Of a stretch of 64,000 nucleotides of DNA, positions 14,755 through 63,976 are shown in pieces. The DNA comes from an uncultured Gammaproteobacteria bacterium (GTDB lineage Bacteria; Patescibacteriota; Microgenomatia; UBA8517): NCBI GenBank assembly GCA_964587425.1, contig CAZPLB010000002.1, forward strand, positions 102,053 through 166,052, given 5' to 3'. The position numbers and the translations under genes are program-made. Within the stretch, counting starts at the first letter, position 1. Each line of letters starts with the position of its first letter. The notes below the pieces were generated by a model. It was not told where the DNA came from. It saw nothing but the letters and a program-made list of their open reading frames with translations, and ran no database searches.

Positions 14755-14938
14755 ATATTTGGTAGTATATAATAAATAATATGGATGACTACGAAGACTC
14801 AAAAGTAAAATCTCAAGCTGAACTCAGAGTTGAACTTTTACTCCAAAAAAAGATAACTAGAGAGCAATATGGCTATTGGCTAAGAGCAGAAACTCAAGAC
14901 TCAGAAGACTGTCTACTCAAGAAAAACACTTTACCATA

Positions 14939-16013: not shown

Positions 16014-16882
16014 ATAGGAACAACAACTCGCACCAATCTCAAAAACTTAATGCCGTAAATCCCTACAATTACTGCCATATTAAGTATTAGCGGATAACGG
16101 TTCCAAAGTCTATTCTTGTAAAAAATTTCCATCGAATTCACTCCTGCCATTACAAAACGCATTGTCCTTCTGCCCTTTTTACTGGCCTTTTTAATATGAA
16201 GTATTGAAACCTTTGGATAGTAAATAATCTTAGCACCAGTTTCCTTTATCTTCCAACACAAATCAATATCCTCTCCATCAAGAAAATATTCCTCACTAAA
16301 CCACCCCACCTCATCAAGAAGTTTCCTGCGAGTTAGAAAGTATGCCCCCTGTATTACATCAACTTCTTGTATCATGTCTGAGCTTTCATATTGATGCCAA
16401 TATCTTGCAAAAATTCTGGATGTCGGAAAAATTCTATCGAGTCCGCTAAAGTGAGTAAAGGAAACCCATGGAGTTGGAAAACTGCGTCTAGCATCTTTAT
16501 CTAAATTCCCATTTGGCAAAATAGTCTTGCAAGTTACCGCTCCAACATCGCTGTTTTCATCCAAGTATTTAAGAGTCTCATTAATTGTGTCTTTGTAAAC
16601 CTCAGTATCGCTATTCAAAAATAAAACATATTCGCCCTTCGTAAACTTTCTTGCAGAGTTATTCCCCCCTGCAAATCCCAAATTCTCTTTATTTACTACA
16701 ACCCTTACCTTAGATTTCCTGCTACCCAGTAAACTACTGGTAATGCGCTCACTCTCACTAGTACTGTTTTCAACCAAAACTATTTCGTAAGTAATACCTT
16801 TTGCATGGGCAATTACAGAATCAATACATCTGAGGGTCAAGTCTTTAGTGTTGTAATTTAAAATAATTACAGTTAATTTCAT
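16010..16882 (-). CDS. GT2 (GT-A) glycosyltransferase
   Basis: MKLTVIILNYNTKDLTLRCIDSV, then FLNSDTEV (DXD). Confidence 0.8.
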   Translation of the reverse strand: MKLTVIILNYNTKDLTLRCIDSVIAHAKGITYEIVLVENSTSESERITSSLLGSRKSKVRVVVNKENLGFAGGNNSARKFTKGEYVLFLNSDTEVYKDTINETLKYLDENSDVGAVTCKTILPNGNLDKDARRSFPTPWVSFTHFSGLDRIFPTSRIFARYWHQYESSDMIQEVDVIQGAYFLTRRKLLDEVGWFSEEYFLDGEDIDLCWKIKETGAKIIYYPKVSILHIKKASKKGRRTMRFVMAGVNSMEIFYKNRLWNRYPLILNMAVIVGIYGIKFLRLVRVVVPI

Positions 16883-16883
16883 G

Positions 16884-37792: not shown

Positions 37793-37991
37793 TTATTATT
37801 AATTTAAACAGGGTAACAGCGACAAGAAAATAAAAAATCCAATTCCCAGCCCTAATTGCAAAACCCCAATGATTTGTTGCCAAAAGAAAGCCAGTTATCA
37901 GAAAACCAGTGAATGTTATACTAATAAAAATCTTATTGGTCATGAAATCAATTATACTAAAAATACTCCTCCCCATACTAATTGTAACCAC
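37779..37991 (-). other. small hydrophobic ORF overlapping the 5' end of 35285..37792 by 14 nt: either a separate small membrane protein or a frameshifted N-terminal extension
   Basis: 70-aa hydrophobic ORF in a different frame that overlaps the big gene's start. Confidence 0.2.
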
Positions 37992-39750
37992 AGTAATTTA
38001 TCTACCAATCTTCCAAAACCAAAATATCCTGGTAAATAGAGGGAATGATCTAACAGAATTCTTTTGGCCAATTGTCTATTATGTAAGAGAAAGTATCTTC
38101 AAGTATCATCAAATACCGCTCTGGAATAATCTCTTTTTCTCTGGCACTCCACTTTTGCCCGATCCCCAATCACCAATATTTTATTTACCAAACATACTTT
38201 TTTTACTTTTCAAAAATATAGATACAGGATTCATAGTTTCTATATTCCTACATATTTACTTTGCTGCAATAGGCTTCTACTTTCTTGCAAAAAAGGGGTA
38301 TAAATTTTCACAAAGAACTTCCGTCATCCTTGCATGTCTTTACATAGTTCAACCAAAACTTGCAGGTTATATTGAAGCAGGACATTTTGGACTTATCACT
38401 TCCTGGACTTGGCTTCCTCTAACCTATCTTTCAGCTATTTTACTTGCAAAAAAACCAAATATAAAAAGGGCTTTGTTTTTAGCCATTTCACTATCAGCTC
38501 TCTTCTATACTCACATACTAGTATTTGGAATAGCAACAATTTCAGTTATCATTTTACAGATCTTCTTAAGAAGTAAATTAAAGTTTTCCCTCCTCGCCTT
38601 CATATTCCTATTTCTTTTCATAACCCCAACATTATTTCCACAAATTGCATGGCAAAAAGATACAACAAGATCTCTATTGCTAATTAGTCCTGATGTATAT
38701 CCCAAATGGTTAGGGATAAAAGATTTCTTGAGATCAACACTATTTTTGAATTTGGAAACTGAAAAAACCATAGCCCTAGGTTTTTTCACCTCAATACTTG
38801 CAGTAATTGGCTTTTTCAAACTTAAGCCTAAGCACAGATTAGTCACTGCGATATTAATAGTCTCAATCATAATCATCTCAATGAACAACTCTTCTCCAAT
38901 TTATGAAATTTTAATAAAACAAAATTGGTACATCCTTCTTCGTGTTTCCACACGGTTCTGGTTCATGATAATCTTTATTGTCCTTTACCTTGCAGGCCTT
39001 GCTCTTGAAAAACTGAATAAAAAACTAATAATTAAACTTATAGCTACTCTTGCTTTTGTTGAGCTATTACTCTCTTCTTGGACTTTAATAAAAAAACCAA
39101 TAAAGCCAAACGAACTTCTCGCACCAAAAGAGGTGTACGAATTTTTAAGCAGTGATAAAGATCGTTTTCGAGTCTTTTGCTTAAATAGATGTCTCTCTCA
39201 AAAAGAGGCAGCCATATATAACTTGGAGTTAGCAGATGGATATGGAACTTTACAACAGAAAAACTACTATGACTACTCACAACAATTATCTCAAAACTAC
39301 TATCGAGATAGATACACACTCTCCATCCCTCCATTTGAAATTTTTCTATATGAAAAACTTCAACCTTATTCACCAGCCCTCGCTGCCTATAGAATAAAAT
39401 ATATAATTTCTGACCACAAACTCAAAGACAAAAATCTTATACCCGTAAAAACAATAGACACACTAATAATTTATAAAAATGAATTATTCAAAAATCCAAA
39501 CTATATAACATATACCCCAAATTTTATTAAGGTGAGAGTTACATCACAAAATTCGAATAAACTTATAATTCCAGAGGTATACAACAAAAATTGGGTTGCA
39601 TATCTTAATGGCATTACAAAAGTCGAAGTAAAAGAAACAGCGGAAAAAACCAGATATGTTGATATCAATGAAGATACAGAATTTGTAGACTTTAAATATG
39701 TACCTTGGAAGTTTCCAGAAGCGATTTTTTCATTTAACCAACTGTACTAA
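37909..39750 (+). CDS. YfhO-family membrane protein (GT-C-like)
   Basis: DLTEFFWPIVYYVRESIFKYHQIPLWNNLFFSGTPLLPDPQSPIFYLPNILFLLF matches the YfhO N-terminal signature. 613 aa. Confidence 0.5.
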   Translation: MNVILIKILLVMKSIILKILLPILIVTTVIYLPIFQNQNILVNRGNDLTEFFWPIVYYVRESIFKYHQIPLWNNLFFSGTPLLPDPQSPIFYLPNILFLLFKNIDTGFIVSIFLHIYFAAIGFYFLAKKGYKFSQRTSVILACLYIVQPKLAGYIEAGHFGLITSWTWLPLTYLSAILLAKKPNIKRALFLAISLSALFYTHILVFGIATISVIILQIFLRSKLKFSLLAFIFLFLFITPTLFPQIAWQKDTTRSLLLISPDVYPKWLGIKDFLRSTLFLNLETEKTIALGFFTSILAVIGFFKLKPKHRLVTAILIVSIIIISMNNSSPIYEILIKQNWYILLRVSTRFWFMIIFIVLYLAGLALEKLNKKLIIKLIATLAFVELLLSSWTLIKKPIKPNELLAPKEVYEFLSSDKDRFRVFCLNRCLSQKEAAIYNLELADGYGTLQQKNYYDYSQQLSQNYYRDRYTLSIPPFEIFLYEKLQPYSPALAAYRIKYIISDHKLKDKNLIPVKTIDTLIIYKNELFKNPNYITYTPNFIKVRVTSQNSNKLIIPEVYNKNWVAYLNGITKVEVKETAEKTRYVDINEDTEFVDFKYVPWKFPEAIFSFNQLY

Positions 39751-39830
39751 AACACCAGCAATTAAAAAAAACAATGAATAGTCAGCAAAAACGGGAGAAA
39801 AAATAGAAAAACTAAAAGTGATAAATGCAA

Positions 39831-42677
39831 TCAAGAAAAATATTTTCGCCATAATCTTACTCCTACTATAATACAGCTCCCTATTGAAAGAGCCGATATC
39901 ACAAGACCAGCAACATATATGTCTTGTGGTCTGTAATATACTGTCAACTTCTGGCTACCTCGCCCACCAGTAACATACCATCCATTCGCGTAGCCATTAG
40001 AAGAAAAGTGACCTTGAATCTTAAAAATATCGTCAGATACTAGCTGCCAATCTTTAGAAAAATTATCTAAAAAGACAAGGAAGTATCCCTCTCCACCCTT
40101 CTCAACTGTTACTTCGTATTTTACTGGGTTAATGCGCTTGTACTCTAAAGCAGGCACTTTTTCGATTTCCTTTGCTTCCTCGAAAATAAATACCCTTGAG
40201 TCAAAAATTTTAGTAATTCTCACATTTTTAAAATAACTGATGCTCGCCGGATCACTCTCCTTTGGTAGGGTAATCAATATATCGAGTTTTGAAGGAACAT
40301 CTATTGTGTTAACAACAAAACTCTGTGACTCAAAACCACCATTTTTCTTCAAATAGATATTTGAGTTTCCAATAAGATCAGAAGGAGTGTACTGAATCGC
40401 TTCAAAAAGCGGAGGGTTGCCGCTGCCATACTTGTAGTCAAAACTAATAACATAGTCTGAATATGGATCAAAAAAATGATCGCGCATTGAGAAAACTAAA
40501 GCATTTTTCCTTAATGTACTACTTTGGTAATTTAAATTATCACGGAGCAGCAAAGTCTTCACCGGAACACTTACGACAACTATGTGACGTCCTTCATTAA
40601 TCAAAACCTTTTTAAAGATAATTGATTCATCTGTATCTTCAATTGTTGTTTTTATCAACTTACCATCCAAAGTTACACTAATTTCTTCGTCCCCAAACCC
40701 ACCTTTCTCTATTGCTAAATTAAAAATTCCTCTATGTGGCATTTCAAAACTATATCTTTGTGAACTAGATTGAGCCAAACTCTCCTTTTTCGCCTCCAAA
40801 ATTACAGGAAGGTAAGGAGCTCCGTACGAAGCTCGAGCTTTTTCCACCTCCGAATCGTTACTATCTACAACTAAAGTATCTGCTTTTAAAAATTTAGATG
40901 CGCCAGCAAGTGAAACATTTCCAGATAAATTCATGTAAACTCTTTTTGGAATAAAAATCCTGCGTCCAGTCTGTGATAAATCCTTATTAACTATGAAACT
41001 CCATTGCCCAAAATTATTGATTTCAAATCTAGGGTCCTTCCCATCAAAAGTAACAATAGGCACGCTTGTGTCTGCATCGTTTTTAACAAATAACGTATCT
41101 GCCGAAAAGAAGGGTAGCATAGAAAAAGCTGAGTTAAAGTGTCCCTGCCTTAAACTTACGTAAAACTCCTTTAAGTAAGCATCAACAAAACTATTTGAGT
41201 CAACTAAATTTGGTCCAACGAGAGGCACATCGCTAAGTAGTCCAAGTATCGACTCAACTCCTCGATAACCCCATTTAAACTTTTCGATTTCATCATCTGG
41301 ATATGAGATTATCCTATTGTCACTAGCTTTATATCTTTTAGTTAGCCAAGCCTTTGCACTCCAAACATAAGGTGGAAACTTGATATAGAACCCGTCCTTT
41401 CTTGAAGGTCTAAATATTTTTCCGGTTACCAAAGGGTATGTATAAATCAAGTTACCAAAAACAAATAGAACAAATAAAAAAGACAGTAATTTCTTTGGTC
41501 TTACATACTTCAATAAACTATATTCTGAGAGAAGCAATATCAAACCAGCTATTGAAAGGGTTGCAAAAGGTGTAAATATATACCAGGGACTTCTAAAAAA
41601 AGAGAAAAAGGGAACGTGTTTAGCTAAAAAAGTATAGATAAATCCAGTCGGGGTATGAGTCCCAATCCCCAAAACTATTCCCAATACAAAAAGAGTGCCA
41701 AAAAAACGATATAAATTTTTTCTCTCCCTGTTTTGAATAGCAAGCGACAAAATGGCAAGAAGAGGTATTAGTACACTAAAAACAACGAAGGGCAAGTTCC
41801 ATAAATAATTAGCAGCATATGGCAAGTACTCCGGCTCTCGGGTTGAATCTGCAAATACATACCAATCCCAAGCGCCTTGCAATCTCATCACATTAAACGC
41901 ACTTGTCTTTTTAGATAAATCGTCAATCCAATTAACATACCCTATATCAGACAAACTATTAACAGGTTTACTGCCGAAAATTAAAAAGTTAACAGTCGGC
42001 AAAATCCAAAAGATATTTACTAAAAACATAATCAGAAGTAATATACTGCCACGCTTTATTGTTTTAGGATGAAAAAGAAGGTACAAAACAATAACTAATA
42101 TTATTGTAACAAAATATGCAGGATTTATTCCAGAACCTGAGATTAGAACAGAAATGAGGGTGCTAAAGAAAACAAACTTACCAATGGAAATCTTATTTAA
42201 ATTTACATTTATCAAGAGAGCAAGGACTGCTGGCAAACCAACTGCAACAGCAAGATTTGATACCTTTACGTTTTCCCATGTATTAAAAAGGTATGTATTA
42301 AAAACGTACAAAGAAACAAACGTCAATTGAGCTAGTTTATTTTTTGTCAAAACCCGAGCTAAGACAAAACTCGAGATAACTATGGCCGCAAACCAAAAAA
42401 CTAGACTAAAAATTTCTGTAAATTTCAGACCAAGACCGAGAGAAAAAGGTATTACCTGAATTAAATGGAAAAAAATACCTGCAGTAGATGATGAAAAATT
42501 GCTCCCTGCATTAAAAATATCTGTCCAAACGAAAAACCTCCTCAAAAACCACGTAATCGGAGATAATGGAAAATTAGTATCAACTCCATCTATTAAAACG
42601 GCACCTTTCCCTAAAAACCAGGCCAAAGGAGTAACGCACAAAATGAAAATTATTATATAGTTAAAACGTTTCTTCAT
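39831..42677 (-). CDS. large GT-C-like membrane glycosyltransferase (AftD/DUF3367-like)
   Basis: 948 aa. N-terminal GVDTNFPLSPITWFLRRFFVWTDIFNAGSNFSSSTAGIFF resembles the AftD-family start. Polytopic N-half and soluble C-half. Confidence 0.45.
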   Translation of the reverse strand: MKKRFNYIIIFILCVTPLAWFLGKGAVLIDGVDTNFPLSPITWFLRRFFVWTDIFNAGSNFSSSTAGIFFHLIQVIPFSLGLGLKFTEIFSLVFWFAAIVISSFVLARVLTKNKLAQLTFVSLYVFNTYLFNTWENVKVSNLAVAVGLPAVLALLINVNLNKISIGKFVFFSTLISVLISGSGINPAYFVTIILVIVLYLLFHPKTIKRGSILLLIMFLVNIFWILPTVNFLIFGSKPVNSLSDIGYVNWIDDLSKKTSAFNVMRLQGAWDWYVFADSTREPEYLPYAANYLWNLPFVVFSVLIPLLAILSLAIQNRERKNLYRFFGTLFVLGIVLGIGTHTPTGFIYTFLAKHVPFFSFFRSPWYIFTPFATLSIAGLILLLSEYSLLKYVRPKKLLSFLFVLFVFGNLIYTYPLVTGKIFRPSRKDGFYIKFPPYVWSAKAWLTKRYKASDNRIISYPDDEIEKFKWGYRGVESILGLLSDVPLVGPNLVDSNSFVDAYLKEFYVSLRQGHFNSAFSMLPFFSADTLFVKNDADTSVPIVTFDGKDPRFEINNFGQWSFIVNKDLSQTGRRIFIPKRVYMNLSGNVSLAGASKFLKADTLVVDSNDSEVEKARASYGAPYLPVILEAKKESLAQSSSQRYSFEMPHRGIFNLAIEKGGFGDEEISVTLDGKLIKTTIEDTDESIIFKKVLINEGRHIVVVSVPVKTLLLRDNLNYQSSTLRKNALVFSMRDHFFDPYSDYVISFDYKYGSGNPPLFEAIQYTPSDLIGNSNIYLKKNGGFESQSFVVNTIDVPSKLDILITLPKESDPASISYFKNVRITKIFDSRVFIFEEAKEIEKVPALEYKRINPVKYEVTVEKGGEGYFLVFLDNFSKDWQLVSDDIFKIQGHFSSNGYANGWYVTGGRGSQKLTVYYRPQDIYVAGLVISALSIGSCIIVGVRLWRKYFS

Positions 42678-44300
42678 CTATTTTTCCTCTAACTTCAAAC
42701 GAATCTCATCGCTAACATCTTTTATTGCAAACTTCTCTCCATCCCATCGGAATGCAATGACATCGCTTGCTGTAAAATAATGGTTTGAATAATCCGATTT
42801 CATTTTTTCAAAATCGTAATAATATCCAAAACCAAAATCATCAATCTTTCGATAACCTTCTTCTGTAATTTCCCATAGAAAGAAATCTTTATAAAAAGAA
42901 ACAGGAATCTTTTGTCTCTGTGAATAAGTAACCAATAACATATTTCCAACCCCTGATTGAAAAGGCAATATTTCAACCGGCAGATTCCAGTACTTCAGGT
43001 TACTATCTGTATATATCACTGTATTCTTACCCAGAGTAGGATAATTATCGACAACAAACCCCAAAATATTCTTCCTCAACTCCCCCAAATAAACTGCATC
43101 ATTAATTGTCTTCAAGAGGAAAAATGTGTGACCTATAATTAAAAAGGAGAAAATAACCGCAAACAATAGCCTCTTTTTAGTACTCATATACCAAAAAGAA
43201 ATTGCAATCGCAAACATAAAAGTTGTTGGGTATAAAAACCTTGAATCAAGATGGGTATAGAATTTTCTAACTAGAAGTGCCGGAATAGTAGAAAGAATTA
43301 TTCCCATAATTGCCAGCGCAAAATATTTAGATTTCTTGCTTTTTATATAAACCCAAATAGATGCCAAGAGTACTGATAAACCCAATGTAAAAGTCAATAA
43401 ATCATAAGCAATTATTTCCAAAAATTGCCACGGTTTGGCGAAATGAAATGAAAAATCTGGATGATTATTAGCAAATGATCTAGATAAACTAATTAAAAGA
43501 TCGTTTGGCAGAAGATCCTGGGCAAAAACTTTAACAGGGGCAGTCAAAAAATTATAGATAATAGTATGGACAAAACTATCTTTTGACACATTAATAGCTG
43601 AAGACATACCGACAACCGATGTCCCAGATGAAAAATCAGTCAACCTAAGTAATCCATACACTACAAAAACAAAGACTGCTAGAATAACCTCCTTTTTGGG
43701 AAAATTTTTAATTTTATTTGAATAAAAATAGAAAACAAAAAGAGGAATAAAAAAGATTATTGTCTCCTTAAAAAGTAGGCCGATTACAAAGCTTGTTAGG
43801 CTAACCACAAAAAATCTGAAACTTCTCTTTTCAAAGTAGTATGTTAAGAAAATAAAAGAAATAATTCCAAAAAAGAGAGACCATTGTGTTCCCTCAAACG
43901 TTCCAATCCAGGTGACAGCCTGATGATGGCTGCTATTAACAACAAAAAATAAAGCACCTAAAAAAGAGGCAAACCTATTTTTTGATAAACGATAAATCAA
44001 AAAATATACTGCAAGGCTATTAAATATATGACCCGCCATACTGGCCATAAAATATGGCGCTGTGGTTAACCCCCAATGCCTATAAATATTAAATTTAAAA
44101 AGAAGAGAAAGTGGAGTAAAGTGTGTTACTGACCCGCCTGAGAATACATTTCTCCAAAAATCATGAGAGGAAAGAGACAAAAGGTAATTATAAAAACTAA
44201 AGGTATGCCATTCATCCTGTTCAAAAAAACTTCCCGGCAATCTCCAATATAAGATTAAAACAACAACAACTAGTAAAAGTATTGGTATAATTTTTTTCAT
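42678..44300 (-). CDS. polytopic membrane protein, putative GT-C glycosyltransferase
   Basis: 540 aa. An acidic first loop (FFEQDEWH) follows TM1. Start is 1 nt after the stop of the upstream gene. Confidence 0.45.
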   Translation of the reverse strand: MKKIIPILLLVVVVLILYWRLPGSFFEQDEWHTFSFYNYLLSLSSHDFWRNVFSGGSVTHFTPLSLLFKFNIYRHWGLTTAPYFMASMAGHIFNSLAVYFLIYRLSKNRFASFLGALFFVVNSSHHQAVTWIGTFEGTQWSLFFGIISFIFLTYYFEKRSFRFFVVSLTSFVIGLLFKETIIFFIPLFVFYFYSNKIKNFPKKEVILAVFVFVVYGLLRLTDFSSGTSVVGMSSAINVSKDSFVHTIIYNFLTAPVKVFAQDLLPNDLLISLSRSFANNHPDFSFHFAKPWQFLEIIAYDLLTFTLGLSVLLASIWVYIKSKKSKYFALAIMGIILSTIPALLVRKFYTHLDSRFLYPTTFMFAIAISFWYMSTKKRLLFAVIFSFLIIGHTFFLLKTINDAVYLGELRKNILGFVVDNYPTLGKNTVIYTDSNLKYWNLPVEILPFQSGVGNMLLVTYSQRQKIPVSFYKDFFLWEITEEGYRKIDDFGFGYYYDFEKMKSDYSNHYFTASDVIAFRWDGEKFAIKDVSDEIRLKLEEK

Positions 44301-53280: not shown

Positions 53281-54504
53281 ATGATAAATTACTTTTCTAA
53301 AATTTACAAAAACGATTTAGAAAAGTTATTAACGCAAAACAAATCAAAAGGTTACAGAGTATTTAAATTAATAAACAAGCTGCCAAAAGGTAAATATAAT
53401 ATAGTATATTTACCAAACACACTCCACCACACCACAGACATTCAACACCTTGCAAGTCGTCTCAGAAAAGTCACAGGGAGTGAAACATCAATAATTATTG
53501 TCAGTTTTAATTTCCTGTGGAAACCTATTTTATCTCTTGCCACAAAACTCAGGCTTCGCCAAAAGGATATTCAGGAACCAAACTGGCTAACAAAAGAAGA
53601 TATTAAAAATATTTTTGAAATTGAGGGTTTCAGAGAAATAAAACACAGTAAGCGCTTCCTTTTCCCATTTGAAATACCCTTCATAACCAACCTCATAAAT
53701 AAATATCTCGCCAACCTGCCGTTAATAAATTTAGTTTGTCTAACCTCATACCAAATCTTTCGAATTCCCAAGAACCCAAAAAAATACTCAGTTTCAATCA
53801 TAATCCCTGCAAGAAACGAAGAGGGAAATATTAAAGGTGTACTTAAAAAAATTCCAAACATCGGAAAAAAGACAGAAATTATATTTGTAGAAAATAATTC
53901 AACAGACAACACCATCCAAGAAATAAACAATGAAATAAAAAATAATGGTAAGAATATGAAAGTCATACTAATCAGTAAAAAAACGAAGGGCAAAGCAGAA
54001 GCTGTAAGACTCGGGTTTAGGAAAGCCTCGGGAGACATATTAATGATCCTTGATGCAGATTTAACGGTTAGCCCAAGTGAGCTCCCCAAGTTTTACAACG
54101 TCTTGGCAAATGGAGTAGCAGATTTTGCAAACGGCAGTAGATTAATATACCCCATGGAGAAACAGGCCATGCGGACAGCAAACTATATCGGCAATAAAAT
54201 AGTAAGTCTGCTATTCACATTCATTTTGGAACAGAAAATAAAAGATACACTCTGCGGTACAAAAGTACTCTTTAAAAAAGATTACAAAGAAATCGAAAAA
54301 AATAGAAGCTACTTCGGAAACTTCGATCCATGGGGAGACTTTGACCTTCTTTTTGGTATATCAAGATTAAATCTCAAAATCGTCGACATTCCTGTAAGAT
54401 ATAAAGAACGAACCAAGGGTAAATCAAACATGCGGCTCATCAGACACGGTATAGCACTCATGAAAATGTTAATAATTGGTGCAAAAAAGCTTAAGTTTGT
54501 ATGA
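53281..54504 (+). CDS. GT2 polyprenol-phosphate glycosyltransferase (DPM1/GtrB-like catalytic domain) with an N-terminal ~165-aa extension
   Basis: C-terminal 240 aa: YSVSIIIPARNEEGNI, FVENNSTDNT, ILDADLTVSP, and a Dpm1-like acceptor loop. The N-terminal region resembles the C-terminal lobe of a class I methyltransferase without motif I. Confidence 0.65.
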   Translation: MINYFSKIYKNDLEKLLTQNKSKGYRVFKLINKLPKGKYNIVYLPNTLHHTTDIQHLASRLRKVTGSETSIIIVSFNFLWKPILSLATKLRLRQKDIQEPNWLTKEDIKNIFEIEGFREIKHSKRFLFPFEIPFITNLINKYLANLPLINLVCLTSYQIFRIPKNPKKYSVSIIIPARNEEGNIKGVLKKIPNIGKKTEIIFVENNSTDNTIQEINNEIKNNGKNMKVILISKKTKGKAEAVRLGFRKASGDILMILDADLTVSPSELPKFYNVLANGVADFANGSRLIYPMEKQAMRTANYIGNKIVSLLFTFILEQKIKDTLCGTKVLFKKDYKEIEKNRSYFGNFDPWGDFDLLFGISRLNLKIVDIPVRYKERTKGKSNMRLIRHGIALMKMLIIGAKKLKFV

Positions 54505-56009
54505 AAAGTTATTTAAAAAAAAATAAGATTCAGATACTAATTATTACCCTAGTCTTTTTAGTTATTTGGCATAAAATCCTTTATCAAATCCCAATCGGAG
54601 AGGGTTACTACTATTTCGATAGAATCCAAATTATCAAACTGCAAGAACTCCTGCCAGATAAGGCACTCGCCACCTACGACATGTTCCCAAGAATTCTATT
54701 TACTTTTCTACAACCATTATTTAGAGACAATATTCTGCTTTATATTATTTTGCAGTTTACTTTTATGTTTTTTGTTTATCAAATTCTCTACTTCACTCTG
54801 CTAAAGATAACTAAGGATAAACTCTTAAGCCTTGGCTCCACCATATTATTTATATCAAACTACATTGGGTCGTTTTCAATATTGGGTACCGGAGGCTATC
54901 AGCGATTTATACAAAGATTTCCAAATTTAATTTTAATCCTCCCTGCTTTCTATTTTCTCGATAGATATTTAAAAAGTGAGAGAAGGAAAGATTTCGTTAA
55001 ATCATATTTTCTCTTCGCATTGAGTCTAGTGCTTGCGCATCACGTTGTATTTTGGTCATGGATCTTCATCATCTTTCCGCCAATAAATTCATTTCTTAGA
55101 AAAGAAAGGCTAAGTAAATTAATTAAATCGTTAAAAATAAGTTCACTATTTCTAGCTACCACTTATATACTGACCGTCTTTGATACACTTTCTAAACCAG
55201 ACAAACACACCATCCTTCAATTTATTAAAAATACCGAGTCCCTTCCTCAAAAGATTTTCTACCAACTCCCTATTGTTTTCTTTCCACCAAAACTTCTTCA
55301 ATATTTTCTAGATCATAGTAAATCATTATTATTTCCAACTTTGTTAATAGTATTAGTACTTATCTTAATTTCCATAAAACTATATAGAAATGAAAAAAAA
55401 TTATTGGCTATCTTTATTACCTTAACTTCTTCACTTTTATTAGTATGTTTCCTAACTCTTTATGCATATGGTGGAGTTCCAAATCCGCTACAGGGTGTAG
55501 GTGAAGACAGAATATACTTCGTGCAAATCCTTTTCACAAGCATAATTACTGGAATTTTTATTAAAGCATTCTTTGGAAAAAATAAAATACTTTATTCAAT
55601 TGTATGGGTATGTCTCCTCGTCTTCACTCTCAACAACAATACACAATTGATATGGAAAGGCATGGAGAGAATTCAGTACAAAGTAGAATTAGAGAGGATA
55701 TATATAAACTATATAAAGGGCAAGAAGAACGAGTTTGGAGGCAAACCAATTCTAATAATTTCACAGCCTCTTGCAGAAACAAGCAATTTCATTAAGCGCT
55801 TCTATATGCCTCCAGAAACAACATACATAACATTCCATGAAAACTGGCAAAATGATTTAACAAAAATATACTTTCAAAACAAAGATGTTCACGTAATAGA
55901 TTTTAGCTACGAATTAAAAGAGGGTGTCGTTGACGCAAAAACAATACAGTTAAAAGACTTAACCGAGGATTTCAAAAATGGTAATAAAATTAATACATTT
56001 AAATACTAA
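54501..56009 (+). CDS. polytopic membrane protein, putative GT-C-like
   Basis: 502 aa with more than 10 hydrophobic helices. Stop/start overlap with both neighbours. Confidence 0.4.
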   Translation: MKSYLKKNKIQILIITLVFLVIWHKILYQIPIGEGYYYFDRIQIIKLQELLPDKALATYDMFPRILFTFLQPLFRDNILLYIILQFTFMFFVYQILYFTLLKITKDKLLSLGSTILFISNYIGSFSILGTGGYQRFIQRFPNLILILPAFYFLDRYLKSERRKDFVKSYFLFALSLVLAHHVVFWSWIFIIFPPINSFLRKERLSKLIKSLKISSLFLATTYILTVFDTLSKPDKHTILQFIKNTESLPQKIFYQLPIVFFPPKLLQYFLDHSKSLLFPTLLIVLVLILISIKLYRNEKKLLAIFITLTSSLLLVCFLTLYAYGGVPNPLQGVGEDRIYFVQILFTSIITGIFIKAFFGKNKILYSIVWVCLLVFTLNNNTQLIWKGMERIQYKVELERIYINYIKGKKNEFGGKPILIISQPLAETSNFIKRFYMPPETTYITFHENWQNDLTKIYFQNKDVHVIDFSYELKEGVVDAKTIQLKDLTEDFKNGNKINTFKY

Positions 56010-56734
56010 TGAACTCTTTAGACAAACCAAAAACGGTGTTAGTTCACAAAAAAACAATTCAAGAAAACCGACAATTAAATGATTTATATATTGGCTTCTA
56101 TTCAAATCTCAAACAAATTAAACTTCCGAATGGAAAAATAATCGAATTGGGTTCAGGCGGCGGGTTCATAAAAGATATAATCCCTAACATGATAACATCA
56201 GACACCGTAAAAGGTCCTGGAATAGATAAAGTTTTCTCTGCAGAAAAAATCCCGTACAAAAATAATTCAGTGGCGTGTTTTTTTATGTTAAATGTTCTGC
56301 ACCATATTAAAAAATCCGAATCGGCAATTTACGAAATGCAAAGATGTCTTAAAAAAAATGGCAGGATAGTGATGATCGAGCCATATATCTCTCCATGGTC
56401 AAAATTTATTTATAAAAACTTTCACCGCGAAAACCTTGACGAAAAAGGTGGGTGGACAATTCAAGGAAAAGGAAGACTTACGGATGCAAATATTGCCCTA
56501 CCTTGGATAATATTTATTAGAGATAGAAAACTTTTTAAAAAAAGATTTCTCAAGTTAAAAATTATGAGAGTAAAACCACACACCCCTTTCACATATATTC
56601 TCTCTGGCGGTCTCACCAAGCCTCCTTTAGTACCATATTTTATTTTCAATATACTAAACTCCTTTGAAAAAAAGATTCCATTCTTGAATACTAAACTAGG
56701 GTTATTTATGACAGTAGAAATTAAAAAAACGTGA
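56009..56734 (+). CDS. class I SAM-dependent methyltransferase
   Basis: IIELGSGGGFIKD, FMLNVLHHI, KKNGRIVMIEP. Confidence 0.65.
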   Translation: MNSLDKPKTVLVHKKTIQENRQLNDLYIGFYSNLKQIKLPNGKIIELGSGGGFIKDIIPNMITSDTVKGPGIDKVFSAEKIPYKNNSVACFFMLNVLHHIKKSESAIYEMQRCLKKNGRIVMIEPYISPWSKFIYKNFHRENLDEKGGWTIQGKGRLTDANIALPWIIFIRDRKLFKKRFLKLKIMRVKPHTPFTYILSGGLTKPPLVPYFIFNILNSFEKKIPFLNTKLGLFMTVEIKKT

Positions 56735-56785: not shown

Positions 56786-57715
56786 ATGCAATCAATTTCA
56801 ATTGTCATACCGGTTTTCAACGAGCAGTCAAATTTAAAACCTCTATACATCAGATTAGACTCTGTCGTCAAAAAAATTTCAAAATCCCACGAGATAATTT
56901 TCGTTAACGATGGATCAACAGATAAAAGTCTAGATACTCTAATACAATTAAGGAAAAAGGATAAAAGGATAAAAATAATTTCTTTCACCAGAAACTTCGG
57001 TCATATGCAGGCAATTGATGCAGGGTTACAGATGAGTTCTGGCAACAAAGTGGTTGTAATGGATGCAGATCTTCAAGACCCTCCAGAAATAATCGAGGCT
57101 ATGTGGAATAAATCAAAAACTGGATACAACATTGTATATGGAACAAAAAAGGGAAGAAAAGAAAGCATCGTCAAAAAATCCCTCTTCTCAATGTTCTATA
57201 AAATACTGAACAAGGTTTCAAAATTAAAAATGCCGGAAAACGCAGGTACGTTTTGTCTCCTAGATAGAAATGCAGTTGAAATAATATGCGCTCTTCCCGA
57301 AAGAAATAAATATTTCAGTGGTCTAAGAGTCTGGACCGGTCTCAAAAGTACTGGGGTCACCTACGAAAGAGCTAGCCGCTACAAAGGTCGTCCCAAACCC
57401 ATGTCAAAACTTCTTTCTTTAGGCTTTGACGGAATAATATCCTTCTCATACTTGCCGCTTAGAGTTGCAAGTATTATTGGATTTATTTTTGCTTCAATAT
57501 CTTTTCTTTTCATATTAATTGTCATCATTGCAAGGTTTGCTTTTGACAAAGGTATAATTGGTTGGGCATCAACAATGACCACAATTCTTTTCATAGGAGG
57601 AGTGCAGCTTATTACTCTTGGCATAATAGGCGAATATCTTGCTAGAATTTATGATGAAGTCAAAGCGCGCCCACAATATATAATATCGGAAAAAATAGGT
57701 TTTAATAAAAAATGA
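56786..57715 (+). CDS. polyprenol-phosphate sugar synthase (GtrB/ArnC/DPM1-like GT2 with two C-terminal TM helices)
   Basis: ISIVIPVFNEQSNL, FVNDGSTDKS, MDADLQDPPEII, and a C-terminal pair of TM helices (LGIIGEYLARIY). Confidence 0.8.
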   Translation: MQSISIVIPVFNEQSNLKPLYIRLDSVVKKISKSHEIIFVNDGSTDKSLDTLIQLRKKDKRIKIISFTRNFGHMQAIDAGLQMSSGNKVVVMDADLQDPPEIIEAMWNKSKTGYNIVYGTKKGRKESIVKKSLFSMFYKILNKVSKLKMPENAGTFCLLDRNAVEIICALPERNKYFSGLRVWTGLKSTGVTYERASRYKGRPKPMSKLLSLGFDGIISFSYLPLRVASIIGFIFASISFLFILIVIIARFAFDKGIIGWASTMTTILFIGGVQLITLGIIGEYLARIYDEVKARPQYIISEKIGFNKK

Positions 57716-58422
57716 TTATCTCCCACAAATATAAATACATATTCATCAAGCCAAAAAAAATAGCTGGCACAAGTATTGAAGTAGCCCTATCACAAAGTTT
57801 GGGAGAAAAAGATATAATGCCTCCTCTTACAAAATTCTCACCTTTTCATGACAAAGATAAATATACTTTAACCCCGCAAAATTATAAAGGATTCTATGAT
57901 CACCTTTCTCCAGATAAAATAAAGAAGAAAATTGGAAATAAAATATGGAAAGAGTATTTCAAATTTACTGTTGTCAGAAACCCATGGGATTTGGTTGTTT
58001 CAAGCTATTGGTGGGAAGTAAACAAAAAAGTATCCTTGAATGATTACTTGAGAGTAGTGAACGTTAGAGGACTAATCGATTATGCAAAAGATTTCAGAAA
58101 AATTAAAAAGCCGAAAAGTTTCTCAGACTTCGTAAGAAGTCTTCCAAAAGCATATATCAATACAAATTACTACTTCGAAACAAACGGAAAACCTCTTGCA
58201 GATTTTTATATTCGATATGAGAACATAGACAGTGATTACAAGAAAGTCTGTAAAAAACTAAAAATTCCATATGTAAAACTTTTGCACCTGAAATCCAAAA
58301 CTAGAAAAAACAAAAAACACTACTCATATTATTACAACAAAGAGACAAAAAAAATAGTTGCTGATATTTTCAAAAAAGAAATAAAGTACTTTAATTACCG
58401 ATATCTTTCTCGACCCTTTTGA
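57712..58422 (+). CDS. sulfotransferase family protein
   Basis: 5'-PSB-like YIFIKPKKIAGTSIEVAL (ifihipKtgGTS pattern) and 3'-PB-like FTVVRNPWDLVVSSYWW (RdPveRlvSay pattern). Its start codon overlaps the GtrB-like stop. Confidence 0.55.
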   Translation: MIISHKYKYIFIKPKKIAGTSIEVALSQSLGEKDIMPPLTKFSPFHDKDKYTLTPQNYKGFYDHLSPDKIKKKIGNKIWKEYFKFTVVRNPWDLVVSSYWWEVNKKVSLNDYLRVVNVRGLIDYAKDFRKIKKPKSFSDFVRSLPKAYINTNYYFETNGKPLADFYIRYENIDSDYKKVCKKLKIPYVKLLHLKSKTRKNKKHYSYYYNKETKKIVADIFKKEIKYFNYRYLSRPF

Positions 58423-59410
58423 AGTCTTTATAAAATTTACCCCAATCGACCGGAACCATTAATTCTTTGAACATTACTCCATCTGACACTACTCTAAGTT
58501 TTTGAATTTTAGATCTCTTTCTCAGAGTAGAAGGTAAATGAACTAAGTTCCACCATAACGCTCTAAAAATCATAGTGGCATTTTTAATACTTCCCTTTAA
58601 AAGAAATGCGAATGCAATTCCAAGTGAAATAATAATATGAATAGGTAAAACTACAATTAAATTCAATAGTCCAAAGCTTTTAAGAAGTGAACAAATTCTA
58701 TTTTTATAATAATGAAAATTAATATTTAATACATTAAGTCTCCTTATTGTGTATCCAACTTTATGGTAAATCTTTGCATTAGGAAAAAAAACAACCCGCT
58801 TACCCACAAGCCATACCTTCCAACAAAAATCGCTTTCTTCAAAATAAGAAACAAAATCATCATCGAATAAACCAACCTTATCCACAACATCTTTCCTAAT
58901 TAGAATGCAAGCCCCTTTGGCGCTAAATATATCTCTTTCATTTTCAAATTCCTTTGAATCCTTTTGTAGAAAACCCCAATGGTCTAAAAACCCAATTCGT
59001 GTCATGAATGAACCGGCGTTATCCATCAGTTCTGGCTTGTCCATAATTAAAATCTTCGGCTGAATTGCACCAATAGTATCGTCTTCCATCATTCTCTGAA
59101 CCATCTTACTTAAGAAACTAACTTCAACTTTTGTATCATTGTTAAGTAGAAGAACATACTTACCTTTAGAAACAGCAACTCCTTGATTATTTGCCTTTGC
59201 AAATCCCACATTCTCTTTATTCTTTATCGTCTTCACTTTTATTCCTCTGAAGCTTTCAAGTTTTTCAATCGAATCGTCAGTAGACCCATTATCAACAACA
59301 ACTAACTCCCAATTTCGATAGTCAATTTTAGACAAAGATTTAATGCAATCTTCAAAAACGCTGCCACCATTCCAATTTGCAATAATTATTGAAACCAATG
59401 GTTCTTTCAT
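58391..59410 (-). CDS. GT2 glycosyltransferase
   Basis: LVSIIIANWNGGSVFEDCIKSL, VVVDNGSTDDS, LLLNNDTKV. Confidence 0.75.
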   Translation of the reverse strand: MKEPLVSIIIANWNGGSVFEDCIKSLSKIDYRNWELVVVDNGSTDDSIEKLESFRGIKVKTIKNKENVGFAKANNQGVAVSKGKYVLLLNNDTKVEVSFLSKMVQRMMEDDTIGAIQPKILIMDKPELMDNAGSFMTRIGFLDHWGFLQKDSKEFENERDIFSAKGACILIRKDVVDKVGLFDDDFVSYFEESDFCWKVWLVGKRVVFFPNAKIYHKVGYTIRRLNVLNINFHYYKNRICSLLKSFGLLNLIVVLPIHIIISLGIAFAFLLKGSIKNATMIFRALWWNLVHLPSTLRKRSKIQKLRVVSDGVMFKELMVPVDWGKFYKDFKRVEKDIGN

Positions 59411-60279: not shown

Positions 60280-61251
60280 TTGGGTAAGTGGTATAATCCA
60301 ATCGAAATGAAGAAACAGCAATTTATTTCATTCGTCATTCCAGCCAAAAATGAAGAAGAATCAGTTGCTCCTCTGTTCCAAGAAATCACGAAAAACATAA
60401 AAAATATAACAAACAAATTTGAAGTTATATTTGTTGACGATGGCTCGACAGATAATACCTTCCAAGAAATCACAAAACTCAGGAAAAAAAACAAAAAGGT
60501 AAAAGTATTAAAGTTGAGAGGTTGGCATGGAAAATCTATAGCTCTTAAGTCCGGATTTGAATATGCACGTGGAGAAATTATAATCACAATGGATGCAGAT
60601 CTCCAAGACAATCCCAAAGAAATAAAAAGATTTATAGATAAAATAAACGAAGGGTTTGACCTTGTCTCCGGTTGGAAGAAAAAAAGACACGATCCGATAG
60701 CCAAGACATTCCCATCAAAAATAGGCAATTGGACAACAAGACTACTAACAGGTGTAAAAATCCACGACCTTAATTGCGGTTTTAAAGCATATAGATCAGA
60801 AGTTGTTAAAAATCTCAATTTATACGGTGAACTTTACAAATACATCCCTGTACTAGTTGAGAAACAAAATTATAAAGTTACTGAAATTATAGTCGACCAC
60901 CGAAAAAGAAAATTTGGCTCATCAAAATTTGGCTGGGAAAGAAACATGAAAGGTTTTCTCGACATGTTAACAATTGTCCTCATAACCAAATATTTAAAAA
61001 GGCCTGGTCACTTCTTTGGAACTGCAGGTTTCATTTCATTTTTCGCTGGTTTTATAATTGGCCTATATATTGCATATCTAAGAATAACAACTGGGAGCAT
61101 TCAATATAGACACCCGCTTCTTTTTTTGGGAATACTCTTGATGACAATCGGAGTACAGCTTGTAACAACAGGCTTGCTAGCCGAGATGATCACCAGTTTT
61201 AACCAAAAGGGTCAGTCAAGCGCTTCACTCATCGAGAAGATATTAACATGA
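60280..61251 (+). CDS. polyprenol-phosphate sugar synthase (GtrB/ArnC-like GT2 plus C-terminal TM helices)
   Basis: ISFVIPAKNEEESV, FVDDGSTDNT, MDADLQDNPKEI, C-terminal TM pair. The likely true start is MKKQQF at 60307. Confidence 0.8.
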   Translation: MGKWYNPIEMKKQQFISFVIPAKNEEESVAPLFQEITKNIKNITNKFEVIFVDDGSTDNTFQEITKLRKKNKKVKVLKLRGWHGKSIALKSGFEYARGEIIITMDADLQDNPKEIKRFIDKINEGFDLVSGWKKKRHDPIAKTFPSKIGNWTTRLLTGVKIHDLNCGFKAYRSEVVKNLNLYGELYKYIPVLVEKQNYKVTEIIVDHRKRKFGSSKFGWERNMKGFLDMLTIVLITKYLKRPGHFFGTAGFISFFAGFIIGLYIAYLRITTGSIQYRHPLLFLGILLMTIGVQLVTTGLLAEMITSFNQKGQSSASLIEKILT

Positions 61252-62183
61252 CAAAAAAAACAATATCTGTTGTAATCCCCTGCCACAACGAAGAAAAAAA
61301 CATCCCGCACCTAATACCCGCGATAATTAAAAATTTGCCCAAAAAATATAACTACGAAATTATCCTTGTTGATGATGGTTCAAAGGATTCAACTTTCTTT
61401 CAAATTCAAAATATTGCCAAAAAAAATAAAAAAGTAAAAGGTATCGCACTCCACAGAAACTTTGGTCATCAGGCAGCATTGTTGGCAGGAGCTCAAATGA
61501 CCAAGGGCAACGCAGTAATAACGATGGATGCAGACTTCCAACACCCCCCTGAATTAATTCCTAAAATAACATCCCTCTGGGAAAAAGGTTACGATTTAGT
61601 TCAAATGCAAAAAAAAGAAGTGAAGTCAAAGAATATAATTAAACACTCAATTCGAAAATTAGGTTACTCCATCTGGGAAAAAGTAAGCGGTGGCGTATTA
61701 GTTCCAGGTGTATCAGACTTTAGATTAATGGATGCTAAAATCTGTGAATACTTAGTAGAATCTCAAGAAAGAGTAATCTTTTTAAGGGGTTTAACCAATT
61801 TGGCTGCAAGAAAGCCTATTACAATTCCATACCAAGTTGCAAAAAGAAAATTCGGCAAATCCTCCTATACATTTAATATGTTTGTAAACATGTTTATAAA
61901 TGGTTTCATTTCATTTAGCACTTTCCCTCTGAGAATTGCCGCGATAACCGGCTTCGCCATGATTTTAATATCTGGAACACTCCTCACATTGGATATAATA
62001 TTGGCAACGATTACCCACAAAAGAATAATTCAAGGGTTTACAACACTGGCATTTTTGATAATCATATTAAATGGGTTCCTTATTTTTTATATGGGAATTA
62101 TTGGAGAATATCTTGGTGTAATTTTCAAAGAGGTTAAAAAAAGACCGAAATTTTTAATTGAAAGAACAGTCAACATAAAATGA
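61248..62183 (+). CDS. polyprenol-phosphate sugar synthase (GtrB/ArnC-like GT2 plus C-terminal TM helices)
   Basis: ISVVIPCHNEEKNI, LVDDGSKDST, MDADFQHPPELI, C-terminal TM pair (IIGEYLGVIF). Confidence 0.8.
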   Translation: MTKKTISVVIPCHNEEKNIPHLIPAIIKNLPKKYNYEIILVDDGSKDSTFFQIQNIAKKNKKVKGIALHRNFGHQAALLAGAQMTKGNAVITMDADFQHPPELIPKITSLWEKGYDLVQMQKKEVKSKNIIKHSIRKLGYSIWEKVSGGVLVPGVSDFRLMDAKICEYLVESQERVIFLRGLTNLAARKPITIPYQVAKRKFGKSSYTFNMFVNMFINGFISFSTFPLRIAAITGFAMILISGTLLTLDIILATITHKRIIQGFTTLAFLIIILNGFLIFYMGIIGEYLGVIFKEVKKRPKFLIERTVNIK

Positions 62184-62995
62184 AATGTGTAGTTTGTAGA
62201 AAAGACAATTGGAGTAAAAAGTACAAAACACTCCTTAAATGTGGAGGCTGTGGTTTTGTCCGCGCAAATGATAAATTCTTTAAAATAGATCCAAAGAAAA
62301 TATATTCTAGACAATACTTCAATGGAGATGATTACTTTGATTATGAATCTGAAGAAAATGCACTCAAAGTAAACTTCAGAAATAGACTAAACAGGATACT
62401 AAAGTATAGAAAAAATGGCAAACTCCTTGAAATAGGGTGCGCTTATGGTTATTTTCTAGAGTTAGCAAGCAATAATTTTAAGACATATGGTATCGATCTA
62501 GATAAAGAAACCACCAGAATTGCCAAGAAGAATTCAAAATCAAAAATTTATACAGGTGATTTAATAAAAACAAATGTTGGTAAAAACTATGACATCATCT
62601 GCATGTTTGATGTCATTGAACATTTGAAATATCCTGATTTGTATTTCAAAAAAATATATAAAATCTTAAAACCAAACGGTGTCGTGGTGATAGAAACTGG
62701 TGATATTGGATCCACCTTGGCAAAAATTCAAAAAGAAAAATGGAGATTGATTAAACCTCCATTTCATCTGCAATATTTTGACAGAAAAACTCTCCACCAA
62801 TTTTTGTCTAAGAATAAACTCGAAGTCAAACTTTCAGAACATACAAGCTTTGAGAGAACATTAAGTCAAACTATCTACAGACTCCACCCATCTCCAGTAA
62901 CAAACAAAATCTCGGAATACATCCCTAAATTTTCCTTCTCTATAAATACAAACGATATATTATTTGTTATCGCTCAAAAAACGATATCTAACTAA
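62180..62995 (+). CDS. class I SAM-dependent methyltransferase with an N-terminal C4 zinc ribbon
   Basis: CVVCRKDNW...CGGCGF, then LLEIGCAYGYFLE, GIDLD, MFDVIEHL. Confidence 0.65.
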   Translation: MKCVVCRKDNWSKKYKTLLKCGGCGFVRANDKFFKIDPKKIYSRQYFNGDDYFDYESEENALKVNFRNRLNRILKYRKNGKLLEIGCAYGYFLELASNNFKTYGIDLDKETTRIAKKNSKSKIYTGDLIKTNVGKNYDIICMFDVIEHLKYPDLYFKKIYKILKPNGVVVIETGDIGSTLAKIQKEKWRLIKPPFHLQYFDRKTLHQFLSKNKLEVKLSEHTSFERTLSQTIYRLHPSPVTNKISEYIPKFSFSINTNDILFVIAQKTISN

Positions 62996-63976
62996 ATCGA
63001 GATGGACAGTAACTGGATAATCAAGGCATCCAACTCGAATAGTAGGCGTATCTAAACCCATTGAAGGAAGGTCAAAGGTGTAATCCCTCTCTAGGCCATC
63101 TGCATGCAATATGAAAGGTATCACTCCCTTTCCGTACGACTTCGAGCTCCATTCAACACAAGCTGTTACTCCACTTTTCAGCAATGCCAAAAGCGCACTC
63201 TTATCCGAATTTGTTTCAATGTGTTGCACTGGGGAAATCCGTACCTTCTGCACTAAATTGGGATCAATATCGCCAAAGCCTGCTGGGATTAAGTTTATGT
63301 CGCTAATCGACGGTCTATCTCCTCCAGTTTCAATTATTTTTATTTCAATCAGCTTCAACCGCCTTTTGGGAAATAATACTTTAATAACGCCGTCCTTAAA
63401 AGTACTCATCTCAGTATTCACATTAATTCCATCAAGCTTAACCTCAACTTTCTTCGGCTTTCGAACTTCACTCTGACCCTTTATTATTATTCCATCCAAC
63501 AAATTACTGGATTTAAAAGATAGGGTGATAACTGGCTTAACCCCTTCAAACCAGTCTCTTTCCCCAAGCCAATAGCTATCTTGAAACGACACATCTGTCA
63601 TACTCTTGGGATCTGTCCCCTCGCTCGAGCTTGTTGCCGCTATTGTAACCTCATTCCTTAAACCCTCTGAAATCCTAATAAAATCAAGGTAATGTGAAAT
63701 TCCAACATCCGCAGAAATACAATCAGTACATTTATCCAAAGGAGGAACAAAATCATGAACATCTGCCTTCAATCTCAATACCATAGTTGTAGGGATAGTA
63801 GGTATAAACCCAGTCATCACAAATTCATCCTTTTGAGACTTTAAATAAATCTTGTTACTTCTCGAAATATTCTTGGCCAATAAATCTCTCGACTCTTCTG
63901 TAGTATCAATCAATTTACTCCCATTCCAGTAGAATGCATACAGCCTATTGCTTGGCACGTTTCCATCTCTCCACAT
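62960..63976 (-). CDS. hypothetical protein with a discoidin-like segment; the frame stays open to the window end, so the true start may lie beyond 64000
   Basis: 338-aa ORF. SFQDSYWLGERDWFEGVKPVITLSF...DGIIIKG is reminiscent of an F5/8 type C domain. There is no stop between 63977 and 64000 in frame. Confidence 0.3.
   Translation of the reverse strand: MWRDGNVPSNRLYAFYWNGSKLIDTTEESRDLLAKNISRSNKIYLKSQKDEFVMTGFIPTIPTTMVLRLKADVHDFVPPLDKCTDCISADVGISHYLDFIRISEGLRNEVTIAATSSSEGTDPKSMTDVSFQDSYWLGERDWFEGVKPVITLSFKSSNLLDGIIIKGQSEVRKPKKVEVKLDGINVNTEMSTFKDGVIKVLFPKRRLKLIEIKIIETGGDRPSISDINLIPAGFGDIDPNLVQKVRISPVQHIETNSDKSALLALLKSGVTACVEWSSKSYGKGVIPFILHADGLERDYTFDLPSMGLDTPTIRVGCLDYPVTVHLDLVRYRFLSDNK

Follow-up and report, generated by a model that had tools for sequence, protein, structure and literature searches.

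Sulfotransferase genes have been described in the polysaccharide gene clusters of several bacteria. In the capsular polysaccharide (CPS) and O-antigen clusters of Vibrio sp. KMM 8419, as with KpsS of Mesorhizobium loti, NodH of Sinorhizobium and Stf0 of Mycobacterium tuberculosis, the gene lies among glycosyltransferase genes, and its product is presumed to sulfate a glycan or glycolipid intermediate in the cytoplasm with 3′-phosphoadenosine-5′-phosphosulfate (PAPS) as donor (PMC11641403, PMC11625862). Here we describe a gene with a similar context in a bacterium of the candidate phyla radiation (CPR; Patescibacteriota, Microgenomatia, UBA8517 in GTDB). It occupies positions 57712-58422 of a 64,000-nucleotide stretch of contig CAZPLB010000002.1 (the window hereafter, with a G+C content of 35%). 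The closest named relatives of its product, at 70% identity, belong to Candidatus Woesebacteria, and the source is probably a Woesebacteria-like genome. We consider it probable that the product is a cytoplasmic PAPS-dependent O-sulfotransferase acting on a polyprenol-linked intermediate of an envelope glycan; that it is a PAPS-dependent sulfotransferase is, taken by itself, highly likely.

It is by gene context that we liken the window protein to these bacterial enzymes. Their clusters or genomes carry cysDN/cysC, whereas no such gene was seen in the window, and none of them comes from a CPR organism. Unlike the window protein, NodH belongs to PF13469 and Stf0 has an arginine-type 5′-phosphosulfate-binding (PSB) loop. 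Known modules for lipid-linked sugars (Gtr, Pgf and Arn) combine a polyprenol-phosphate sugar synthase bearing a C-terminal pair of transmembrane (TM) helices with a GT-C glycosyltransferase, as do genes in the window, and to our knowledge no such module contains a sulfotransferase. For the archaeon Halobacterium salinarum, Lechner, Wieland and Sumper reportedly showed in 1985 that the sulfate esters of the S-layer N-glycan are added on dolichyl-phosphate oligosaccharides before transfer; this archaeal, dolichol-based pathway resembles that proposed for the window protein in mechanism only. The first-pass annotation of this DNA had called sulfated glycans rare in bacteria. That was an overstatement, as at least 573 relatives of this subfamily were confirmed in GTDB species representatives from many phyla of bacteria and archaea (the best match to the window protein having 46% identity), beside the sulfotransferases described in polysaccharide clusters (PMC11641403, PMC11625862).

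The open reading frame (ORF) and its elements are listed below in window positions; residue numbers refer to the protein, and PB denotes the 3′-phosphate-binding motif.

57712-58422, plus strand: sulfotransferase ORF, soluble, 236 aa, PF03567 type, with ATG start, TGA stop and pI 9.9
57712-57715, plus strand: 4-bp ATGA start/stop overlap with the upstream GT2 gene, read from the DNA
57748-57774, plus strand: PSB loop, K13-P-K-K16-I-A-G-T-S21 (KPKKIAGTS, residues 13-21)
57901-57903, plus strand: H64, candidate catalytic base, at least 90% conserved
57976-58014, plus strand: PB strand-turn-helix, R89-N-P-W-D93-L-V-V-S97-S-Y-W-W (RNPWDLVVSSYWW, residues 89-101)

Pfam Sulfotransfer_2 (PF03567) matched the protein over its full length (profile positions 4-251 of 252) and passed the gathering threshold with 22.8 bits (cutoff 22). 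A database search returned 140 homologues, most of them with a precomputed PF03567 assignment and some named by NCBI "sulfotransferase family 2 domain-containing protein". When 46 homologues were scanned singly, 42 matched PF03567, the best at 6e-18, and five also matched PF00685. Since the family members match PF03567, the marginal score of the window protein is rescued. An AlphaFold2 (AF2) model, built on the homologue alignment, reached a mean predicted local distance difference test (pLDDT) score of 91.6 and a predicted template modelling score (pTM) of 0.89, and it shows the alpha/beta fold of sulfotransferases, with its central parallel sheet. In a Foldseek search of the PDB, the first 49 matches were all proteins of sulfotransferase fold that bind PAPS or 3′-phosphoadenosine-5′-phosphate (PAP). 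They were headed by the heparan sulfate sulfotransferase HS6ST with PAP (probability 0.99) and included cytosolic SULTs, NDST and plant SOTs; among the 49 is also retinol dehydratase, which is not named as a sulfotransferase. At the sequence level profiles were needed: the single sequence gave one spurious weak match only against PDB sequences, whereas with a profile of 66 relatives 23 of the 24 best matches were sulfotransferases, the other being a kinetochore protein (E = 0.46). SULT1C3 came up in this search at E = 2e-4, and the aligned part stretched from RNPxDxxVS as far as the YEd(l/m) strand.

The ORF truly belongs to the family of PAPS-dependent carbohydrate sulfotransferases, in a branch that is widely distributed among bacteria and archaea. 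The sulfotransferase identity proposed in the first-pass annotation is therefore borne out by a full-length family match, a confidently modelled fold and motif residues that are invariant across the family. This is an ordinary and sound family assignment, and public annotation already reflects the name. PAPS-independent aryl-sulfotransferase (ASST) was also considered as an identity and rejected, since such enzymes belong to another fold and another Pfam family, to which the protein gave no match.

Sixty-six diverse relatives were aligned (29-71% identity to the ORF; Patescibacteria, Bacillales, Alphaproteobacteria, Planctomycetota, Verrucomicrobiota, cyanobacteria and archaea). Invariance was limited to six columns, M1, I10, K16, S21, R89 and S97. 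Within the PSB loop, A18 and G19 were conserved in at least 90% of the sequences in addition to the invariant K16 and S21; within the PB motif the same holds for N90, P91, W92 and D93 beside R89 and S97. In the published definition of the family, PAPS is held by a lysine and a Ser/Thr of the PSB and by an arginine and a serine of the PB motif (PMC11625862), so that four of the six invariant residues (K16, S21, R89 and S97) are PAPS-contact residues. A conserved catalytic lysine is placed in the 5′-PSB strand-loop-helix, and the PB consensus is PxxRxxS for PF03567 and RxxxDxxxS for PF00685 (PMC11625862). R89-x3-D93-x3-S97 fits RxxxDxxxS exactly, while the middle arginine of PxxRxxS is replaced by L94, at a position that varies across the subfamily; for this reason the branch appears, from its motifs, somewhat intermediate between PF03567 and PF00685. 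The PB stretch aligns to VARNPKDCLVSYY of SULT1C3. Both motifs quoted in the first-pass annotation are thus present and amount to more than chance resemblance, and their conservation held in comparison with true sulfotransferases, both across the 66 aligned sequences and in the alignment with SULT1C3. Judged from the alignment, H64, which lies 25 residues ahead of R89, is most likely the catalytic base: the catalytic histidine of SULT precedes R130 with a similar spacing, and that of HS2ST is placed likewise.

Neither of the two closest groups of this fold matches the window protein in every respect. The animal enzymes of PF03567 (HS2ST, HS6ST and CHST8-14/HNK-1ST) are alike in HMM (hidden Markov model) match, PSB loop, the serine of the PB helix and a histidine between PSB and PB. 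They differ in having a type II membrane anchor and a lumenal stem, both missing from the soluble protein of ~236 aa, and in keeping the PxxRxxS arginine where the window protein has L94 within a PF00685-type RxxxDxxxS; solved members of PF03567 share only ~10-15% identity with it. The cytosolic SULTs (PF00685; SULT1C3, 2reo/2h8k; SULT1E1, 1aqu) gave the best profile matches, are soluble as well and carry an equally spaced arginine/serine pair for the 3′-phosphate, but their acceptors are small phenols and steroids, and their family was reached by only five of the 46 relatives scanned. The SULT PSB, which we take to be PKSGTT, differs from the loop of the window protein, whose spacing is instead PF03567-like; its K-x-x-G/S-T-S spacing presumably matches that of HS2ST and HS6ST.

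M1 is kept in all 66 homologues, each opening with MIISHK..., and the start codon is therefore correct. The junction with the upstream gene reads AAAAAATGATT, where the ATG (57712-57714) overlaps the TGA (57713-57715) of a 309-aa GT2 gene. The 236-aa ORF and the ATG/stop overlap given in the first-pass annotation were accordingly reproduced from the DNA. The translational coupling it read into the overlap found no support as a functional signal. Four-bp overlaps make up 15 of the 48 same-strand junctions in the window (any overlap, 30 of 48); ATGA is the commonest junction type there and hence not special to the sulfotransferase gene, and we rejected it as a sign of specific coupling. At its 3′ end, the ORF shares 32 bp with the 3′ end of the convergent GT2 gene at 58391-59410 (minus strand). 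Promoter counts between 52.4 and 60.4 kb equalled the shuffle expectation and were uninformative, and no terminators were found in a scan. The protein has neither a TM segment nor a signal peptide (maximum 19-residue Kyte-Doolittle mean, 0.61); given this lack of hydrophobic segments and the pI of 9.9, it should be cytoplasmic.

The genes around the sulfotransferase gene that are referred to below are the following.

53281-54504, plus strand: GT2, 407 aa, first gene of the plus-strand operon
54501-56009, plus strand: predicted GT-C-fold membrane glycosyltransferase, 502 aa, same operon (AF2/Foldseek)
56009-56734, plus strand: S-adenosylmethionine (SAM)-dependent methyltransferase, same operon
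56786-57715, plus strand: putative GtrB/PgfS/ArnC-like polyprenol-phosphate sugar synthase, 309 aa, GT2 domain with C-terminal TM helices
58391-59410, minus strand: GT2, 339 aa, convergent with the sulfotransferase gene and kept beside it in L001, L086, L090 and L091
59407-60255, minus strand: GT2, 282 aa, part of the conserved block
60280-61251, plus strand: second GtrB/DPM1-like GT2, part of the conserved block
61248-62183, plus strand: third GtrB-like GT2

Gene order was compared among five Woesebacteria-like lineages, the window and loci L001, L086, L090 and L091, whose sulfotransferases share 67-71% identity. The order GtrB-like gene, sulfotransferase gene, convergent GT2 gene (~340 aa) is common to all five; wherever the contig is long enough, the block goes on with a GT2 gene (~280 aa), followed by another GtrB-like gene, while the flanks vary among the lineages. 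In L091 a flavin adenine dinucleotide (FAD) oxidoreductase gene abuts the GtrB-like gene, so that the GT-C and methyltransferase genes of the window are absent there. The junction between the GtrB-like and the sulfotransferase gene is a 4-bp overlap in three of the five lineages and a 5-bp gap in the other two. The sulfotransferase gene is stably tied to a five-gene glycosyltransferase block, in which its link with the two convergent GT2 genes is as close as that with the GtrB-like gene.

The locus in L001 (Woesebacteria GW2011_GWB1_45_5) also holds, at 13999-17157, a gene for a 1052-aa Formyl_trans_N protein beside genes for a GtrB-like GT2, YdjC and PMT_2. Part of this protein is 30% identical to the product of an unannotated window ORF (62960-63976). 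By analogy, the arrangement recalls the logic of the Arn pathway for formylated 4-amino-4-deoxy-arabinose (Ara4FN).

The product of the gene upstream of the sulfotransferase gene (56786-57715) matched the Pfam GT2 family at 2e-29 and has hydrophobic segments at residues ~225-250 and ~263-285, an architecture that identifies it as a putative polyprenol-phosphate sugar synthase. In NCBIfam it scored 252 bits against PgfS (cutoff 500) and 174 bits against ArnC (cutoff 529); as both scores are far under the equivalog cutoffs, it is no orthologue of either. The 502-aa product of 54501-56009 had no match in Pfam. Its AF2 model (pLDDT 78.6) shows a multi-TM GT-C fold, with Foldseek probabilities of 0.98-1.00 for the ten best matches at template modelling scores (TM-scores) of ~0.45; the top 12 comprised STT3/PglB, DPY19, AftA, Pmt4 and glycosylphosphatidylinositol (GPI) mannosyltransferase I, and ArnT ranked 15th. 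With the GtrB/PgfS/ArnC-like gene upstream and the predicted GT-C enzyme in the operon, the view of the first-pass annotation that the sulfotransferase gene is embedded in a lipid-linked-sugar module holds for the window. As a separate observation, the GT-C protein has eight detectable homologues and invariant acidic residues (E34, D60 and D76) near its N-terminus, and may, on the strength of the model, represent an unannotated GT-C family.

For the wider family, the neighbourhoods of the best 80 of the at least 573 GTDB relatives were compared (tblastn). Recurrent neighbours in these loci were genes for MsbA-like ABC exporters, GT4 and GT2 enzymes, sulfatase-like proteins and other P-loop sulfotransferases. 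A 41% homologue (L088) is clustered with rmlABC, DegT, Sulfotransfer_1, GT2 genes and PMT_2. In a metagenome-assembled genome of Nanoarchaeota (L089, GCA_048625195.1, 7910-11704), the homologue has two Sulfotransfer_1 genes and a GT2 gene as flanking neighbours; CysC and CysD used as tblastn queries revealed no PAPS genes up to 10 kb away. Two loci link the family with PAPS synthesis: (i) in Anaerolineales (L063), the homologue, which adjoins genes for an ABC-transporter permease and ATPase, is separated by 530 bp from cysD, a cysN-cysC fusion and cysC; and (ii) in Ectobacillus (L009), it is accompanied by a second Sulfotransfer_2 gene, TauE, a GT4 gene and an adenosine-5′-phosphosulfate (APS) kinase gene. 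These associations lend indirect support to a PAPS-dependent activity. In total, an APS kinase gene was detected within 10 kb at two of the 80 loci, or at three when a Sat motif is counted, a mild enrichment over the ~0.4 expected by chance on a rough estimate.

Sulfatase-like genes beside homologues were noted at L041 (7016-8437) and at six other loci, mostly from Candidatus Udaeobacter, by sequence inspection of a cluster representative. Possibly, these neighbours hint at paired sulfation/desulfation loci in Verrucomicrobiota.

From the motifs and the gene context, the following course of the reaction can be proposed. K16 and S21 of the P-loop-like 5′-PSB would hold the phosphosulfate, and R89 and S97 of the PB strand-turn-helix the 3′-phosphate of PAPS. 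The conserved histidine, most likely H64, would deprotonate a sugar hydroxyl, which would then attack the sulfur in line. Given a soluble enzyme and a glycan completed outside the membrane, sulfate would be added at an intermediate stage, to the sugar of a polyprenol-linked molecule at the cytoplasmic face of the membrane. The acceptor may be the undecaprenyl phosphate (Und-P)-monosaccharide made by the GtrB-like enzyme, or an undecaprenyl diphosphate (Und-PP)-oligosaccharide extended by the adjacent GT2 enzymes. The sulfated intermediate might subsequently be flipped or exported, or be moved by a GT-C enzyme onto an envelope glycan or glycoprotein.

A narrower explanation is that the enzyme sulfates specifically the polyprenol-phosphate monosaccharide of the upstream GtrB-like enzyme and that the GT-C enzyme then transfers the sulfated donor outside the membrane. 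We regard this as unlikely. It would account for the position of the GtrB-like gene directly upstream in all five lineages (overlapping by 4 bp in three), for the predicted location of the sulfotransferase in the cytoplasm, where polyprenol-phosphate sugars are made, and for the GT-C gene in the same operon of the window. But the overlap is the default junction there, two convergent GT2 genes are conserved equally closely beside the sulfotransferase gene, and the GT-C gene lies outside the conserved core, being absent in L091. Moreover, outside the Woesebacteria-like clade none of the best 80 relatives has a GtrB-like gene within 4 kb, and no GT-C enzyme is known to take a sulfated monosaccharide as its donor. 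The specific acceptor favoured by the first-pass annotation, a polyprenol-phosphate monosaccharide, thus receives no particular support from gene order.

That the acceptor is not a glycan at all and the glycan neighbourhood incidental seems distinctly improbable. A PAPS-dependent sulfotransferase of this kind would act on a membrane lipid, a small metabolite or a protein residue, and enzymes with PF03567- and PF00685-type folds do sulfate steroids, phenols and lipids besides sugars, as the PDB matches illustrate. Homologues of 43-46% identity in Bacteroidales (L004) and on another contig (L087) lack any glycan context and sit among unrelated genes, i.e. those for Tex, peptidase S9 and phosphoenolpyruvate (PEP) synthase. 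Against this, the GT2-sulfotransferase-GT2-GT2-GT2 block is kept in five lineages despite changed flanks, and glycan genes recur beside distant relatives.

The supply of PAPS is a further point on which the readings differ. CPR genomes are metabolically reduced, with limited biosynthesis. The literature search found nothing relevant on sulfotransferases or PAPS synthesis in CPR/Patescibacteria. The first-pass annotation had remarked that it saw no PAPS-synthesis genes in the window, and Pfam, tblastn and motif scans agree on this: Pfam searches of ORFs of at least 110 aa detected no APS kinase, ATP sulfurylase (Sat, CysD/CysN), CysQ or sulfate permease, and no match was found by tblastn with CysC and CysD or with regular expressions for Sat motifs. 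As CysC and CysD queries the E. coli sequences were used; what they matched in L009 and L063 was confirmed with Pfam. By a published criterion, clusters for sulfated polysaccharides carry sulfotransferase genes plus PAPS genes (PMC11641403). The window agrees with this rule by half only: the sulfotransferase gene lies among glycosyltransferase and export genes (GT2, GT4, GT-C, Bac_transf, Wzy_C and flippase), and none of cysD/cysN, sat and cysC occurs within the 64 kb.

We give little credence to a scenario in which an episymbiont without a PAPS pathway of its own uses activated sulfate of its host or community to sulfate a polyprenol-phosphate monosaccharide, with a GT-C enzyme transferring the pre-sulfated donor to envelope proteins or glycans. 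That the protein performs no sulfation for want of PAPS, as a relic of horizontal transfer or after recruitment to bind or transfer, e.g., a nucleotide or phosphate, is likewise very doubtful: the window without PAPS genes, the reduced biosynthesis of CPR bacteria and the patchy spread of the family across phyla (consistent with transfer) would fit, but the ORF is full-length with a conserved start, all PAPS-contact residues are intact and evidently constrained in five diverged CPR lineages (67-71% identity, motifs unaltered), and the absence of PAPS genes covers only 64 kb of the genome.

For a cytoplasmic sulfotransferase acting on a polyprenol-linked glycan intermediate, the reading we favour, the lack of PAPS genes in the window, the PAPS genes of the described clusters, the reduced metabolism of CPR bacteria and the homologues without glycan context all weigh on the negative side, as do several properties of the protein itself. 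Its own Pfam score is barely over the threshold, and no NCBIfam model matched it. Foldseek E-values were ~2e-3 with TM-scores of 0.45-0.52; in the model, the core matches the known fold and the periphery is divergent. A second histidine conserved in at least 90% of the relatives, H5, is located in the N-terminal strand. Finally, the literature search found no experiment on any member of the subfamily.

The conserved block is part of an envelope-glycan island of ~50 kb, extending from ~12 kb to 64 kb of the window. The island encodes a Bac_transf phosphoglycosyl transferase, a ManC-like nucleotidyltransferase, many GT4 and GT2 enzymes, Wzy_C, a Wzx-type flippase, about eight SAM methyltransferases, four PMT_2/PMT GT-C enzymes and three GtrB/DPM1-like GT2 paralogues. 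With these three paralogues (56786-57715, 60280-61251 and 61248-62183) and at least five GT-C enzymes within 50 kb, the investment in extracytoplasmic glycosylation is unusually heavy for a small genome.

Further observations concern other parts of the window. These comprise (i) four large adjoining ORFs in the middle of the island (35285-44300; 835, 613, 948 and 540 aa) without a Pfam match; (ii) a GT4 enzyme in two ORFs on the minus strand (14939-15499 and 15486-16013, overlapping by 14 bp), with the N-terminal Glyco_transf_4 and the C-terminal Glycos_transf_1 domain, respectively, a split suggestive of a frameshift, pseudogene or assembly error; (iii) a gene for a DCD-domain protein directly downstream of one for an N6/N4 DNA methyltransferase (7105-7842 and 7849-8589, minus strand; PF10539, 4e-25, and PF01555, 2e-51); and (iv) a TspO/MBR family protein (3668-4207, minus strand, 6e-41) in this CPR-like genome. 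The DCD ("Development and cell death") domain is known mainly from plants; here, it could be a reader of modified bases paired with the methylase.

As sulfotransferase genes in polysaccharide clusters are known and members of the subfamily already carry a generic NCBI name, the locus does not represent a new kind of system. The subfamily nevertheless has at least 573 species-level occurrences and no characterised member, so that a single biochemical characterisation would annotate many genes. CPR organisms live attached to other cells, and their envelope chemistry is almost uncharted. If the window protein is active, some CPR bacteria bear sulfate esters on their surface glycans. Such sulfated glycans would bear on host adhesion and on phage and immune recognition, and one would have to ask where a minimal genome gets its PAPS. 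Should sulfate from a host or community indeed go into a pre-sulfated polyprenol-phosphate monosaccharide, both this type of lipid-linked sugar donor and the metabolic dependency of CPR/DPANN cells would be new. The interest of the locus would lie in the sulfated envelope glycans of CPR/DPANN episymbionts and in the source of their PAPS.

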